Shown one piece after another: positions 1,752 to 48,745 of a stretch of DNA of 64,000 nucleotides. The notes below the pieces were generated by a model. That model made no database searches. It had not been told where the DNA came from and saw only the letters and a program-made list of their open reading frames with translations. Each line of letters starts with the position of its first letter. Position 1 is the first letter of the stretch. Position numbers and translations under genes: made by a program. This DNA comes from Octopus vulgaris (Eukaryota): NCBI GenBank assembly GCA_951406725.2, contig OX597832.1, positions 5,704,001-5,768,000 of the forward strand. Direction: 5' to 3'.

Positions 1752-4700
1752 CTGGAAAATAAAAAGTAAGAAAAAATGAATTAATTTTCAATCATAAAAA
1801 CAAAAATCATACATAAAAGATAGCTAAATTGAAAAATAGAGAAAATTTTCTTTCTTCACATTGTATTTTTAGAAACAAAAGCATTATAGGATACAGGTTT
1901 CTTACAGGACAATCAGTGGTTGATTATATTTATAATAGCAAGAATGATAATTTCAACAGATTTTCATTTCAAACACCTGGTTTATCATATTCCTTGCTAT
2001 GTTCTTTCACAGAAATACACTCATAACAGATATACACATATAAGTTTTATTAAAACTTTGAGTCTAGTTAAATACATTTTGTTTCATTTGGAGAACGTGT
2101 CAGTTATTTGCAGAGCAAATATATAATGTGTCTACATACATACATACATATATTTGCACACATACTGACATAGAGCAGAAGGCATTCTGTCTGACACTCT
2201 AACAACAGGCATGTGGTTTAGAAGTTTATGTACCGATGATGTGGTTTTAGGTTTGGTCCTACCATGCAGTTGCTTTGAGCAAATATTTTTCGTAGCTCTG
2301 GGCCAACCTAAGCCTTGTGATTGGATTTGGTAGAAGCAAACTGAATACACATCGTTGATTGGTTGAAATTACCCAAATACAACAACTTTAACACGAAATA
2401 ACTTCTAAAATAGGAAATTTTGTCGAAAACGTTCAGAGTAAACCGTGTTCTATATGAGAAATTCTACCAGCATTTGAAGTTTCAAACTGTTTAGTTAAGA
2501 AAAATTAATTAAAAAATCTGTGATTGAGATGGAATAGATCCAAGAAATCCACCATATGTATATATGTGTGTGAGTGTGTTTGTGTTTCCTTGTTTTGAGA
2601 TCATGTGCTAGTTGTAAATGAATGTCAGTATCAGGCAAACAGTGTGTTGTTCACTTGTAGTCTTCTGTAAAAATGAAATCATGTCTAGCATTGAGCTATT
2701 ATACTGCTTGTGTTTAAAGGACTAGGGGAAATATTACTTGACATGAAAATAGGTGAGGGTGATAACAGGAAGACCATCTAGTTCTAAAAATCTGCTTCAA
2801 TGATTTTATCTGATCCATGCAAGCATAGAATTGTGGATGTTTAAAGAATGATGGTGATTAAATATATATGAGGAAATGTGTGGTTCGCAATCACATGTGA
2901 GCATATACCATTGACAAGGCCCAACAGGGCTGAAATGCATCTGGTGTTCTCACTAGCTGCCTCTGAGACAATTTCCATCTCCTTCTGACATATATCGTTT
3001 TAAAACATAACACGTCCACATGAGATGTTATCTCTGGACAAATACCACAATAAATTGCCTTTCAGTGATGTATTTACATTAAGTATAACACATAGATGAC
3101 TATTATAATTTAATACTGGTTCTTTTGTATACAATGGATTTTTATTCAGCTGGGTCACTATTTGCAATAACACTGACTGTTTATTCACTATTTTCCTACA
3201 TATTCGAGGTGGCTTTGAGTATATATCATTAAGAAGGCTCAATGAGGCTGAACTGTATCTGGCCACTGCTGGAATAATTTCTGTCCCTTCAAAATATACT
3301 GTGATTTTAAGCAAAGCACAACTGTAAGACATGCTACCTCTGAAAGAATACTGCAGAAAATTGCCCTTCAACAATGCATTTATATTAAGTATGACACAAA
3401 GATGGTTTTCATTACCATCTTCATTTAACATTCCTTTTTCCATGCTGGCATGGGTTGGACAGTTTGGCAAGAACAGATGAGGCAGAGGGCTCTACCAAGT
3501 TCTACGTCTGCTTTGGCATAATTTCTACAGCTGGATGTACACACACATTATGATAATTTTACTTGCATGCCTGCCTACAATATCATCGTCGTTTAATGTC
3601 CATTTTTCATGTTGGCATGGGTTGGATGGTTTGACAGAAACTGGCCGGCTATGGAACTGTCCAGACTTCAACTCAGAACCACGTGGACTTTTTGATCCAT
3701 CACAAATATTTTCCTTTTCTATTTCAACTATTTTTCTTTTGTCTGAAACTTCTTATTGGAACATGTATTTTAACAAGTTAAATGATCCTCAAGCCACTAC
3801 TTACTTCATTACAGGTAAATGAAGGTGCTTCTATGTGATTGCTCAACTTGCTAGAAATAAGAGGCAAAAGTTTTTTTTCAAACCATTCCACTGCATTAAA
3901 TATGGAAAAGATGCATTCATAAATATAGCCCCACATATTTTTAAAAGACAAGGCACGTAAAAAGCACCAACCGATCGTGGCCGTTGCTAGCCTCCCCTGG
4001 CACCTGTGCCGGTGGCACGTAAAAAGCACCTACTACACTCATAGAGTGATTGGCGTTAGGAAGGGCATCCAGCTGTAGAAACACAGCCAGATCAGACTGG
4101 AGCCTGGTGCAGCCTCCTGGCTTCCCAGACCCTGGTCGAACCGTCCAACCCATGCTAGCATACAAAACAGACGTTAAACGATAATGATGATGATGAAGAT
4201 GGTCATGTGTGGAATACACTTTCATCAATGATGGAAATGACAGGGTATGCATGAGTACAGTGTTGCTCTGCTTTTCAGCTAACAGAGAGGGGTGGGTTTT
4301 TAAGTGTCTAGCCCAACTTTCCCAACCTCAGCTTCTTGAACCTTAGGGTAGACCAAGTTCCTAATACCTGCTTCCATCACTGTTTTTAATCATAGGACTG
4401 TTTCAACAAAGTTGACCTGGGGTTAAACAGCAACTTTTTTATGAAGTGAGACAAGCTCTTGTTTTCACTTTTAGTTAGTGTGAAGTAGAGTTCATTCTTA
4501 AACATTTTGTAATCAGGAATGATTTTCAAAAACTAAATAGATTCTGTTTGTCTAAATACCCTGAGATCTACCAGACACAGGTATTATCAGGAATACTGCC
4601 TACAGAAAAAGCATTCATGACAATATACTTGAATATGGTGAATATGTGAGATTGGTTAGAATTCAAACATTGAATCCAAAAGAATAGATCATAAGGTATG

Positions 4701-9591: not shown

Positions 9592-12537
9592 AAGATAGAT
9601 ACCAGCTGGTCTGAGTGCTCTCTACCCACAATAACTAAAAAAACTACAGCAACTCAGGGAAACTAAGCCAGAACAACCTGCCATCCTCTACACACCATCA
9701 TAAACTGCGAGCAGGGTACAAATTGTTGTCCTTAAATGCTCGCAGTTTATGCAACAAAATACATTTGTTCAACGCCTACGTCAGAAGTGTTGACCCTGAC
9801 TTCATCACTGTCACGGAAACATGGGCGCATTCCTTACTCTGTGATGGGGTTTTCAACATTACGGGGTACAACCTCTTCCGTAAGGACCGCACTAACCGCC
9901 GTGGTGGTGGTGTGATGGTCTACGTTCGTTCAAATTTTTTGGTAATTCCTTGTGCCGATTTGAACGAATCACAAGAAGAAGTTTTTTTCTGTGACGTGCG
10001 TATGACCATGTCAACACTCCTGCTTGGCGTTGTTTATCGTCCCCCAAGTTACCATCGGGACACACAGCTTTGCAATGTCCTCCGAGCTGCTGCCAGGAAA
10101 ACAGCCACTTATGTGTTTATTGCAGGCGATTTCAATCATCCTGAGATCGATTGGGAGACCTTCCATTGGCCACAGAGTGCAAACGATTTTGTTGAGCTTG
10201 TGCTGGACTCAAACTGGTCACAAGTAGTCACCTCTCCAACAAGAGGCGACAACACCTTGGACCTGCTCTTCACCACAACTCCTGAAGCGGTTATCAATTG
10301 CACTACGGAGGAACCTCTAGGTGACTCTGATCATGCTATGATCATCGCCAATCTGGCTCTTGCGGGCAACAAAAACCTGAACCATCTCCAATCTGCTTCC
10401 TTCGATTGGAAGAGAGCAGATTGGAACCTGTACCACACTGAACTACAGCACCCAAACTGGCGTGAATTCTACAACTCTGGAGATGTGAATACTATACTCC
10501 AGAGTATCCTGGACTCAATATGGGCAGCATGTGCAGCATCAGTGCCACGTAAACAAAAAAAGAAGAACCGCCCCAAAAGGGCAATTTGGGAAACTTCAGC
10601 GGTCCGACTTGCCAGGAGGGAACGTCGGACTGCTGAACGGGAATACAGGTTGCATAAATCAGACACCAACAGGAAGAAGCGGAATAAATCCTCCAACCAT
10701 CTCAAGCAAGTGACAAAAAAAGCAGTGCTTGAATTTGAACAGTGCATAGCAGCCAATCCTGACAGCAAGGTTTTCTGGAAATATGTGCACTCAAAGCAGA
10801 GACCTCACTCTCCAGTGGGCCCTCTTCGCAACCCTCACACAAACCAGATCACTGACGACCCCAAGGAATGCGCAGAACTCATTGCCGAGTGCTATGCAAA
10901 CATATTCACTGTTGAAAGTCAAAATGTACCATCTTCACCATCACTAACAGCAAACTCCATAACAACTATGGAATTTACACCTGCAATGCTGCGACGTCAC
11001 CTTCAAAATAAGCGCAACTATGCCTCCCCTGGTCTCGATGGAGTTACATACCTGCTTCTCAAACGTGGCAGGCACTTCCTTTTACACCAGCTTTCTATTT
11101 TCTTCCAGTACTGTCTCAACAATGGTGCTACTCCGGAGCAGTGGAAAACTGCCAGTGTCATTCCTCTGTTCAAAAAGGGCGACCGCACATCACCTGTCAA
11201 CTATCGCCCAGTCAGTCTCACTAGCTGTATTGCAAAACTGATGGAATCGTGTGTCAGAGAAACACTCTGGAACTTCTGGAGCTCTCACAGTCTCATCCGA
11301 CCCTCACAATATGGATTTGTCCCTAACTCCAGCTGCAGTGACCAGCTTGTCGAGTTCCTTGAGGACATTACTCAGATTACTGACAGTGGCTCATGGGTGG
11401 ATGTTGTCTACCTTGACTTTGCTAAGGCTTTCAACTCTGTGCCACACAAAAGGCTTATGGTGAAACTCTCTGCAATGGGTGTGGGGGATGACCTTTTTAA
11501 CTGGTTGAAATCCTTCATCCTCAGCCGAAAGGAGGTAGTCACAGTTCTAGGACAGCACTCTACACCATATGAGATGTCATCGGGTGTACCACAGGGATCT
11601 GTCCTTGGCCCCCTCTTGTTTGTGGCATACATTAACGACATAGATGCCAATTTGGAGAATGCCACAGTATTGAAATATGCAGACGACATCAAGCTGTACC
11701 TTGAAATCAAGAGGACAGATCCTGATGTCTACAACTCTTTCCTGCAATCAGACCTAGACACAATGCAGCAATGGATCACAGACTGGCAACTGAAACTGGC
11801 TGTGGACAAGTGTACCACCATGCATTTTGGGAGAAAAAACCCTGCGTTCACATACTCCCTCCACAACACTGATATCAAGAAATCCTCTTGCGAGCGTGAC
11901 CTAGGCATCACTGTCAGCAGTGATTTGCGTTGGTCAAAGCATATCTCTAAGATTGTCAGGAAGGCCGAGGGTGTCTTGGCATCACTCAGCAGGTCTTTTG
12001 TTAGCCGCTCTCCAGCCATCTATTTAAAACTGTATACAGCTATGGTACGACCACACTTGGAATTCGCATCATCAGTTTGGAACCCCTATCTTGCACAGAA
12101 CATTGACCTCCTGGAATCTGTCCAGAGACGTGCAACCAAACGCATACCCTCCATCAGACACCTACCATATTCTGAGCGCCTTGTTTCCCTGGGCATGGAT
12201 TCACTGAAGCTCCGGCGTTTGGCGACGGACTTGGTAAACACCCACAAAGTTATCAACCACCTCACCAACAACAACACTGAACACCTTTTTGATCTCCATG
12301 TGTCTAACACACGTGGACATGCCTACAAAGTCAGAAAACAATGCAGCTCCCATGACTTTCGGAAACATTTTTTCACGCTCAGAGTTGCTGAAGCATGGAA
12401 TAAACTGCCTGCGTCAGTTGTTGACTGCCATGACACTGCATCTTTTAAGGCCCTCATGCTTTCCGAAATCCGCCGAAACTTCACCTGATTATATATACAC
12501 TTTAGATGAGTTGTAGTGCACCTGAGCACTGTACACA

Positions 12538-26612: not shown

Positions 26613-26732
26613 CACCAAATTGAGGGAAACGATTTCTTTTTTTATAAACATACGTATGGACGTGTATTTGTGAACATTCAAATACACGTCCATACGTATG
26701 TTTATAAAAAAAATCGTTCCGTCAATTTGGCG
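26613..26732. repeat. Intronic near-perfect hairpin
   Basis: TTTATAAACATACGTATGGACGTGTATTTG-TGAACATT-CAAATACACGTCCATACGTATGTTTATAAA, with imperfect outer extension. Confidence 0.9.
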
Positions 26733-46082: not shown

Positions 46083-46125
<43 letters not shown>

Positions 46126-46126
<1 letters not shown>

Positions 46127-46310
46127 TGTTGTGTCTGGGGAGAGTCATTCTCTTTTAGTACCTTATTATTTAACACCCTCACTGGTAAAATTTGAGTGTG
46201 TTTAATAATAAGGTACTAAAAGAGAATGACTCTCTCCAGACACAACAGAATATGCTTCAACACACGAACTCATATAAAGAATCTTGCAAACCAAATCCCA
46301 AAACGAAATA
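46126..46310. repeat. Hairpin-plus-tail repeat in (TA)n, copy 1
   Basis: CTGTTGTGTCTGGGGAGAGTCATT..AATGACTCTCTCCAGACACAACAG, followed by an unpaired tail. Confidence 0.85.
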
Positions 46311-47280
46311 TATATATATACATATATCCAGGTGGTGCTATTAAGTTAGACATGGCCTGGGTCAATGCTATTAGAAACTTATCTAAGTATGTGTATGTTT
46401 TTATGTGTGCATGTGTGTGTGTACTTTTGTCTTGACATCATGTGATGGTTGTAACTGAACATCCCTATCATACAAGCGATGATATTCATTTCCAGTCTTC
46501 CATGAAAAACATATTTGGCTCTGGGAAAATATTACTTTGCTTGGAAATAGGTGCTGGTTGGTGACAAGAAGAGCATCTGGCCATAGAAAAATCTGCCTTA
46601 ACAAATTCCATCTGACTTACGCAAGCATGGAAAAGTTGACATTAAAAATGATAATATTGTCTATCAGTGGGTGAATGGATCAGCTGTACATTTTTCCTTT
46701 CCCAAGATATCATCATCATCATCATCACTATGATGCAACAGCAGCATTGCATCATCAAAGCAGTTGAAAATGACATCAACATTTCATTACAATTTACTAT
46801 TTTTCTTCAGTAAATCAGATGACATGTAAAAGGAACCATTGTTATTGTTTGTCACCCTTAAGTCTATGAGTGAGTTGGTGTGTGTAGCAGGAGCATATGA
46901 CTAGATGCTTCATCATATCAAGTCCAGCCCATATTAACTTTGATTGTTATTATATTAAAATTAATAAAATGATTATTTAAAAATTTGATAAAGCATATAT
47001 AGGCCCAAACATAATACTGAACTCACTTGAAATGAATTTACATCAAATTTACATCACAGTCCTTCACCCCATCATCATCACCACCATCACTCCACCACCA
47101 CCACCACCATCACCACCATCACCACCATCACCACCATCACCACTGCCACCACCACTGCTGCCTTTCTACTATAGGCACAAGGCCTGAAATTTTTGGCTGA
47201 GGGAATTTGTTCTTTACATTGACCCCAGTACTTAGCCGATACTTATTTCATTGACACTGAAAGGATGAAAGGTAAAGTGC

Positions 47281-47778
47281 ATGAAAACCTGTGATAAAAC
47301 TGCTGCCTTGGATATTCTTACTGATAAATGGCAAGAAAAAATTTTCATTGACAAATACCCAAAGAGAGCTAATAGTGTTGATATTGACAAAGCCCTTACC
47401 CATCAATGGTTAGTGGCTTCTGGCTTAAAATCAGAAACAGAAGGGTTTATCATAGCAGCCCAAGATCAATGCCTATCTACAAGAAACTACCAGGCCAACA
47501 TTTTAAAGAACGGTAGCTGCCCAACATGTTATGTATGTCAACAACAAAATGAAACCATTGATCATGTTCAATACAGTTCCATATTTAAGAGATGAGGAAT
47601 TATGTATATCATTTACATTATTTACATTTAATGGATATTTGTCCTTATCTTGTTTGTTGTTAACACAACATTTCAGCTGATATACCCTCCAGCCTTCTTC
47701 AGGTATCTTGGGGGAAATTTTGAACAAGGGTTCTCATTCCTAAGGTATTTTTCAATGTCATTATTATTATTATTATTA

Positions 47779-47828
<50 letters not shown>

Positions 47829-48745
47829 GTTCAAGTCACTACTTGGAATCAAACTCAGAATCTTGGGGTTAGTAGCACGCACTCTTAACCACTATGCCAT
47901 ATGCCCACGGGCATATGGCATAGTGATTAAGAGCGCAGGCTACTAAGCCCATGATTCCGAATTCGATTCCAAGCAGTGACCTGAACAACAACAACAACAA
48001 CAACAATAATAAAAAATATCCGTCGAATGTAAATAATGTAAATGTTGTCTCCATGTGCAGTCTTCTTGTGCCTACAGATTATCTTAACAGGCATAATAGA
48101 GCAGCACAAAATATTCATTGGGTAATTTGCAAAATCCTGGACTTGCTTCATGATAAAAACTAGTGGGAACACAAACCACCTCCAGTGCTTGAAAATGATC
48201 GCATCTCACTCCTCTGGAACTTCACCATTCAAACTGACAGAAAGATAGATGTGAATAGGCCAGACATTATATTGAAAGACTTCAGACAAAAATCATGCCT
48301 CCTCATTGATATGCCTGTCCCAATCGATAAAAATGTATCTGTCAAGACCTACCAAAAACTGAGCAAATATAAAGATCTTGAAATAGAAATTGGCAAAATG
48401 TGGAACCTTAAGAAAGATGAAAACAATATCTGTTGTCATAGGTATCCTAGGAGTGATAGCAAAAGGGGATGATTGCTACCTAGCTCAGATACCAGGAAAC
48501 CCCAAAATGGTAGAAATTGAAAAGACTGTGCTCACAGTAACTGCCCATATCCTATGTAAAATACTGTCTATGTAATCTCAAATTTTAAATCAAACTCATG
48601 TTTTCTTAAACATTCTCTAGAACAATACTATATACAAAACCAAATATATGACACCCTAGGCATAACATCAACACAAACTTCTAACTTGTTGTCTCTTGAG
48701 GTCTCTGGGTGAGACTTGGAGGCAACTTGTGTAAATACAAAGCTA
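47281..48745 (+). mobile_element. R4/Dong-like (RLE) LINE 3' fragment, split by an insertion
   Basis: GLKSETEGFIIAAQDQ, CYVC..ETIDHV|VSMC..RHN, WNFTIQTD..NRPDII; ends next to (AAT)n. Confidence 0.85.
47569..48041. mobile_element. Palindromic element: head-to-head tRNA-like heads + (AAT/AAC)n + hammerhead-like body
   Basis: Inverted arms centred at 47907-47908. A/B-box-like TGGCATAGTGA and ATTCGATTCC. ATGTT is duplicated at 47564-68 and 48042-46, splitting the LINE codons DHV|VS. Confidence 0.8.

Follow-up and report, generated by a model that had tools for sequence, protein, structure and literature searches.

The window, which is the whole 64,000-nt stretch of Octopus vulgaris DNA analysed here, carries a palindromic unit at 47569-48041 within a LINE. 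The left piece of this host LINE (47242..47568, (+)) holds a broken ORF reading ...TIDHV and gave a weak zf-RVT match below the cut-off (E 0.0016), the R4/Dong-like label having been assigned by reading; the frame resumes with VSMCS... in the right piece (48047..48448, (+)). Alignment with the empty site places the two copies of a target duplication, ATGTT, at 47564..47568 and 48042..48046, both on the (+) strand. When 47569-48046 was taken out, the LINE aligned over 320 nt, with no gap, to two copies that carry no insertion (L077, 91%; L205, 87%). Since a clean empty site and a gapless LINE are restored, the window palindrome is one insertion into an R4-like LINE, as the initial annotation had claimed. 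Of the ATGTT duplication it described, GTT is certain and AT is common to the element end, so that the duplication measures 3-5 nt.

Two tRNA-derived heads lie at the centre of the unit, one in the long arm on the (-) strand (47906-47830) and one in the short arm on the (+) strand (47909-47985), with 85.7% mutual identity and a 2-nt AC spacer between them. The arms of the palindrome are 83% complementary across 107 nt, and the shared end of the unit forms a second inverted pair (81% over 52 nt), beyond which the left arm extends by 41 nt of family sequence. In the long arm, read on the (-) strand, the head with its A box (47899-47888) and B box (47856-47845, one CpG change) is followed by an (AAT)n tract (47761..47829), which lies inside the pseudo-LTR (pLTR) of a Penelope-like element (PLE) and is found at the same place in ORF-attached copies. 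The body comes next (47569..47760), with the final 5' UTR bases and about the first 55 codons of the PLE ORF, whose ATG is at 47737-47735. A putative minimal type-I hammerhead motif, CpG-decayed and recognised by features given in the available text of PMC4209133, overlaps the ORF at 47662..47707, and the last ~41 nt (47569..47609) make up a PLE tail present in the long arm only. The short-arm head ((+) strand) bears an A box (47916-47927) and a B box (47959-47970) with one change each; an (AAC/AAT)n tract follows (47986..48013), and then an internal deletion that took out the ATG and the hammerhead, resembling deletions in L034, L039 and L029. The arm ends at the upstream priming site, near body position 147 (48014..48041). 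The two heads, the 2-nt spacer, the (AAT/AAC)n tracts and the shared end were all found where they had been described, and so were the hammerhead words, kept on the left arm at 47707-47662 (-) and absent from the right arm. The copy is decayed and probably inert: changes are seen in the B box of the left arm, in the A and B boxes of the right arm and in two pairs of the hammerhead. ARAGORN at default settings reported no tRNA anywhere in the window, and Rfam reported neither tRNA nor hammerhead in the window or in one better-kept copy.

The source of the unit was found by scanning the genome, 2.8 Gb in 227 contigs. Among 30 close body copies, two (L022 and L016) showed directly upstream of the head a broken frame resembling a PLE endonuclease end. 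This stretch as query gave 30 loci with the head directly after it in 27/30, an exact ORF-end pattern had the head behind the ORF end in 30/30 loci, and contigs under four other organism labels also bridge ORF end and head. The PLE, about 2.7 kb long, is ordered as ORF stop, 29 nt, head, (AAT)n and the ORF start with the hammerhead. A near-full-length copy, L061, was found with an inverted 5' arm, an RT (Pfam RVT_1) and a terminal head plus body, and a 569-aa stop-free frame in L258 has an RVT_1 match and 2914 homologs, a few of them listed with PF01541, which we take to be GIY-YIG. The parent element has one ORF with RT and, at the C terminus, an endonuclease of the GIY-YIG type, as well as a pLTR containing the ORF start; local Pfam left the endonuclease piece of the ORF uncalled, and the GIY-YIG motif was read by eye. 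Inspection by eye of the one locus L258 found no extra Zn-finger linker between RT and endonuclease.

Homology of the body to autonomous PLEs, as the initial annotation had anticipated, was found: tblastn aligned the body to residues 19-62 of P0003, an 847-aa full-length homolog, and in L223 the body frame continues into the ORF with 41% identity over 177 aa. Judged from these alignments, the body codes for the first ~55 codons of the PLE protein, and because it is coding, the non-coding part of the element comprises 29 nt, the head, (AAT)n and ~21 nt. The idea that the body contains a 47-nt intron was given up, as the unspliced frame matches P0003. Family copies of the hammerhead have the core words, an extra base after position 9, a G-C closing pair and palindromic 15.2-16.2, features that match the minimal hammerhead as described in the available part of PMC4209133; MFE folding did not return the hammerhead. 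The unit would accordingly be described as carrying a putative minimal hammerhead of the PLE type, which agrees with the type named earlier. Head, (AAT)n and hammerhead body together are the pLTR of an autonomous PLE in the same genome, and the element behaves like a PLE of the Penelope/Poseidon type. When another PLE family was sought in the genome as a control, the same family came up again, judged by overlap with earlier places.

Insertion architecture was surveyed in 90 head loci, fetched from the first 100 listed places among 2505 head-pattern matches and all on one contig. An inverted arm was present in 55/90. Body ends cluster at 139-153 and 181-187, that is, at two fixed 3' ends ~40 nt apart, and a long arm is paired with a short arm in 38/50 loci with both ends measured, so that the family combines an inverted 5' arm with a tail of 30-40 nt at one end only. 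Flanking duplications of at least 8 nt were found in 51/88 long-plus-short units (four loci giving two rows each) against ~0.9 expected. The short 5-nt type represented by ATGTT stands at chance level family-wide (15 vs 19.9 expected in two-armed units), and the longer duplications are the usual form. L087 and L088 seem to be a single insertion that was duplicated. PLEs are known, from the accessible text of PMC11167929, PMC8557442 and PMC3846280, for a signature in which two internal priming sites enclose a tail; since the long and short arms and the duplications reproduce this signature, the palindrome in itself is ordinary for PLEs. Both mobilisation by the PLE machinery and a single inverted insertion as the copy form, as proposed for the window unit, are supported.

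The 14% difference between the window heads and the duplication of just 3-5 nt could also be read as two independent insertions that lie head to head by chance. Each head, however, differs from the family majority by 9-10% (7 and 8 of 77 sites), which accounts for the 14%; there is one clean empty site, the inverted arm recurs in more than half of the surveyed heads (55/90), and the same junction recurs in 14 loci. Independent insertion of the arms, which the initial annotation had named as the outcome to look for against its own reading, is thus largely refuted and has a minimal probability.

The heads are joined by a self-complementary 12-nt junction at 47902..47913 (5 + AC + 5; TGCCC-AC-GGGCA), which is native PLE sequence at -7 to +5, as in ORF-attached copies. 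Relative to the long arm, the spacer reads GT in 7 loci (window included), AC in 5 and is ambiguous in 2, the spurious pattern rows L084 and L161 being left out of the count. Had the long arm folded back, AC would remain on that arm every time, so GT-oriented spacers cannot have this origin, and simple long-arm fold-back seems unlikely for the window copy because the native spacer sits on its short arm. Furthermore, in 17 of 38 long-plus-short loci it is the short arm that carries the anchored head, and several loci, e.g. L068, L076 and L085, have a short arm that extends beyond the long one in the 5' direction. From these observations we infer that priming takes place twice and that the two cDNAs anneal by their ends. 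At subfamily sites, both arms match in 18/18 and 35/37 units and therefore derive from one RNA or one active source; the concordance fits one source, and equally fold-back or gene conversion. Similar junction palindromes are read as self-priming in the available portion of PMC3846280. The mixed spacer orientation found here favours the joining of two separately primed cDNAs over self-priming, and thousands of natural insertion products bear on how PLEs make inverted structures.

The family-majority head is colinear, with hardly any gaps, with a genomic tRNA-Arg(TCG), which scored highest among 25 distinct genomic tRNA sequences (z 9.2); the A and B boxes are at tRNA positions, and its derivation from a tRNA is supported by this colinearity. 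Other LINE/SINE 3' ends in (AAT)n were seen fused upstream of head-less bodies in L013, L024, L010 and L205, and head and (AAT)n may themselves go back to a tRNA copy that a LINE once retroposed and the PLE took up. The tRNA finder ARAGORN called 0/90 heads at default and 16/90 when relaxed, and the relaxed calls carry little weight because 28 scattered matches were obtained in 79 unrelated loci. The head has no cloverleaf fold, and MFE folding was without signal (z -0.72 to 0.01). A corrected scan for A and B boxes found pairs in 9/21 family loci vs 2/38 other PLE loci; the two non-family pairs, in a short satellite (L360) and a SINE-like sequence (L382), are neither of them directly behind a stop codon. 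The stretch in L382 (~4520-4570) is tRNA-like; it is separated by ~390 nt from the ORF of a different PLE, with T runs in between, and is probably an unrelated SINE.

Copy ends pile up at the start of the head. Native upstream sequence (-45 to -9) is present in 22/90 heads and absent in 68/90, and nearly all of the 68 end between -8 and +8 of tRNA +1. Copies that pass the head start run on for a median of ~390 nt (n=30), from which it is estimated that random truncation would put only a few percent of ends at -8 to +8. Direct template jumps land at -7 to -4 without inversion (L226, L243, L246), and the head start is the beginning of the forward arm in 3/4 ORF-start loci that reach the head (L230, L233, L246). 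Many copy ends keep 3-7 nt upstream of +1, and exact RNase P-type cleavage is disfavoured for this reason. The pile-up points to an RNA 5' end near -6, at a purine after a pyrimidine, a start that fits Pol III initiation. Some RNA starts elsewhere, since in 22/90 heads the copy continues into the head from an ORF upstream. Counting exact matches to patterns that each had 28 fixed positions gave 4939 for the body, 2505 for the head, 166 for the ORF end and 54 for the ORF start, which extrapolate roughly to tens of thousands of arms; the ORF end was reached by 0/30 body-anchored matches.

Based on these findings, the unit is best read as a back-to-back pair of PLE pLTRs in one LINE insertion, with the tRNA-derived head as the likely own Pol III promoter of the element, a reading held with reasonable though not high confidence. 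Pol III transcription of the element, as predicted from the head and the 5' ends, is plausible. RNA would start ~6 nt before tRNA +1 in a pLTR and continue into the ORF, and the PLE protein would nick both target strands and prime within the RNA at two sites. Priming in the first pLTR would give short SINE-looking cDNAs and priming in the downstream pLTR would give ORF-bearing copies; two cDNAs reaching the RNA 5' end would anneal by the self-complementary -7 to +5 and so produce a palindrome of the window type. Internal two-site priming was demonstrated in vitro for Poseidon_Ac, according to the accessible text of PMC11167929. Three unstranded RNA-seq runs under a related organism label are silent on the polymerase, because depth is equal on both strands and no start site appears at the head.

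A Pol III transcript through the ORF bears on terminators, and T4 runs were counted there. The ORF contains 22 T4 runs in 45.6 kb (30 copies) against 104 expected by base shuffling, and no T4 run is common to more than 2 of the 30 copies. With a synonymous-codon shuffle, 22 were found vs 62 expected in the family and 504 vs 448 in 79 other PLE loci; the host LINE pieces, a small control, had 7 vs 7.9. Because the copies cannot be treated as independent, the ancestral state makes the fair test: the majority sequence has 0 T4 in 2238 columns (P 0.033 by codon shuffle, 0.008 by base shuffle), a result resting on one ancestral sequence, and the 1.7-kb core alone gave P 0.095 (codon shuffle), 0.044 and 0.20 (dinucleotide shuffle). 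T4 is likewise absent in 3/53 other PLEs. A PLE ORF with no inherited T4 run is suggestive as a sign of Pol III terminator loss. The fullest form of the proposal, a ~2.7-kb PLE that has exchanged its promoter for a captured tRNA-Arg head, is copied end to end from Pol III transcripts, has purged its terminators and has left tens of thousands of solo copies, is tentative and rather less probable than the promoter reading; the processivity of Pol III is argued in the available part of PMC10886601 to be too weak for autonomous elements. As a side observation, a metagenome PLE (L380, 2501-4153) has 0 T4 in 1.65 kb vs 4.5 expected, with T runs in the UTR and no A/B box pair.

The head could instead be a captured relic with no Pol III role, the pile-up being a Pol II start, RNA processing, or an RT stop and fold-back at the -7 to +5 hairpin. 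This hairpin belongs to the native sequence and lies just where the 5'-most ends fall, the T4 result is of modest strength, and the accessible portion of PMC3846280 reports TATA/Inr-like motifs as well as palindromes at junctions for PLE pLTRs. Such an account is, however, improbable: non-inverted copies and direct jumps stop at the same place, the GT-oriented spacers are incompatible with long-arm fold-back, the ends with 3-7 nt upstream of +1 are unlike those of exact RNase P-type cleavage, and the A and B boxes are kept although the head has no cloverleaf fold. Were Pol III uninvolved, the window unit would be a short PLE insertion of the ordinary sort that carries a relic of a tRNA.

The initial annotation had taken the unit for an independent SINE, a passenger of the PLE machinery. 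This is not supported, because the unit is the PLE's own pLTR (the 27/30 and 30/30 loci above), its body is coding, and solo copies have no non-CpG diagnostic base of their own at more than 12% frequency. A tRNA-SINE is a non-coding unit distinct from its partner except for the 3' tail, whereas here the whole unit is the pLTR of the partner. Two linked haplotypes occur in 22/68 ORF-attached vs 46/126 solo arms (p 0.64) and in 7/38 vs 25/96 (p 0.5), and divergence is alike in both kinds of arm. In 129 solo vs 73 ORF-attached arms, no solo-specific non-CpG diagnostic base exceeded 12% frequency; four sites differ at p<0.01, all of them CpG or gap positions, and many solo arms had been picked by a pattern covering CpG sites. 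A self-propagating SINE, in which solo pLTRs transcribed by Pol III are the chief source copies and the PLE protein mobilises them in trans, would suit the ~15 to 1 ratio of heads to ORF ends, the single-arm copies with clean duplications (L091, L101, L114) and the A and B boxes inside every solo head. Against these stand, besides the lack of a solo-specific base above that frequency, the templates that were jumped to, in which the ORF breaks off 66-79 nt past the tail in 9/30 ORF-start loci (L226, L227, L230, L232, L235, L237, L241, L243, L246), whereas solo copies have no ORF sequence past the tail; the break-off is possibly the RNA 3' end or a third priming site. Poseidon_Ac, in addition, requires RNA downstream of its priming sites, as stated in the available text of PMC11167929. 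Self-propagation is unlikely on this balance, and from their sequence the solo copies are probably for the most part by-products of ORF-linked sources and not a self-propagating lineage; they may also remobilise.

The closest known systems, in the accessible parts of PMC11167929 and PMC3846280, are Poseidon_Ac of the green anole and Adineta Pen2a, respectively, with which the octopus PLE shares a single ORF with RT and C-terminal endonuclease, a pLTR that includes the ORF start with a hammerhead overlapping it, and a 30-40 nt tail, an inverted 5' arm and duplications of ~8-14 nt. Unlike these two, the octopus PLE has a UTR made up essentially of the tRNA-derived head, with its A and B boxes, and (AAT)n; its 5' ends are fixed at the head, and solos are far more numerous than ORF copies. 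For Pen2a, TATA/Inr-like motifs are described (PMC3846280). The TRIMp3 elements (Cassandra, Helenus, Ajax) likewise have a small-RNA-derived Pol III promoter in a terminal repeat, possibly through SINE insertion. They are non-autonomous LTR elements of 311-1263 bp, whereas the octopus repeat belongs to a ~2.7-kb protein-coding PLE, and assignment of the unit to TRIMp3 was rejected since the repeat goes with a PLE ORF; a Pol III promoter in a protein-coding element is deemed unlikely for LTR elements in the same source (PMC10886601, as far as its text was available). Schistosome Sm-alpha and Sj-alpha likewise have a Pol III-type promoter followed by a hammerhead (PMC6765202), and animal non-LTR retrozymes are related to PLE pLTRs (bioRxiv 10.64898/2026.07.22.740005). 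Both are non-coding and often tandem in the accessible text of these two sources, whereas in the octopus unit the hammerhead lies in sequence that codes for the PLE protein, and the common form has either one arm or two inverted arms; the unit was therefore not placed with non-LTR retrozymes or Sm-alpha, its body being coding and direct tandems a minority. The nearest promoter precedents, TRIMp3 and the schistosome hammerhead SINEs, are all non-autonomous. The octopus SINEs OR1 and OR2, probably from the same host group, likewise have a tRNA-derived head and are cited (from Ohshima and Okada 1994) as CORE-SINEs in the available portions of PMC4824008 and PMC4758252; the palindrome body is fully explained by PLE 5' UTR and ORF, and the unit was set apart from OR1/OR2 by their description and not by CORE sequence.

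Pol III is not known to drive any but short non-autonomous elements. If the promoter reading is true, a PLE that is autonomous, relies on a Pol III promoter and keeps its ORF clear of terminators would break this rule; in the fullest form of the proposal, such a PLE would also give rise directly to a SINE-like family. Sequences annotated as SINEs in such genomes may partly be PLE pLTRs. No PLE with a tRNA-derived promoter was found in the literature searched, which lay outside Repbase, Dfam, SINEBase and subscription journals; the repeat library of PMC13282606 may hold the family.

Several further features were observed. In L017 (1689-1851) the same LINE family as the host is joined to a PLE pLTR, via an (AAC)n tract, at the very nucleotide used in the window, which could be either chance microhomology or a preferred site. 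Elsewhere in the window, an uninterrupted 949-aa frame at 9639-12488 (+) resembles an endonuclease-RT LINE ORF2 (labelled by eye) and is probably from a young copy. A near-perfect hairpin at 26637-26714 gave several sub-threshold matches to miRNA models in Rfam, and at 46121-46253 there is a MITE-like inverted repeat with 61-nt arms, 93% complementary, around an 11-nt spacer.
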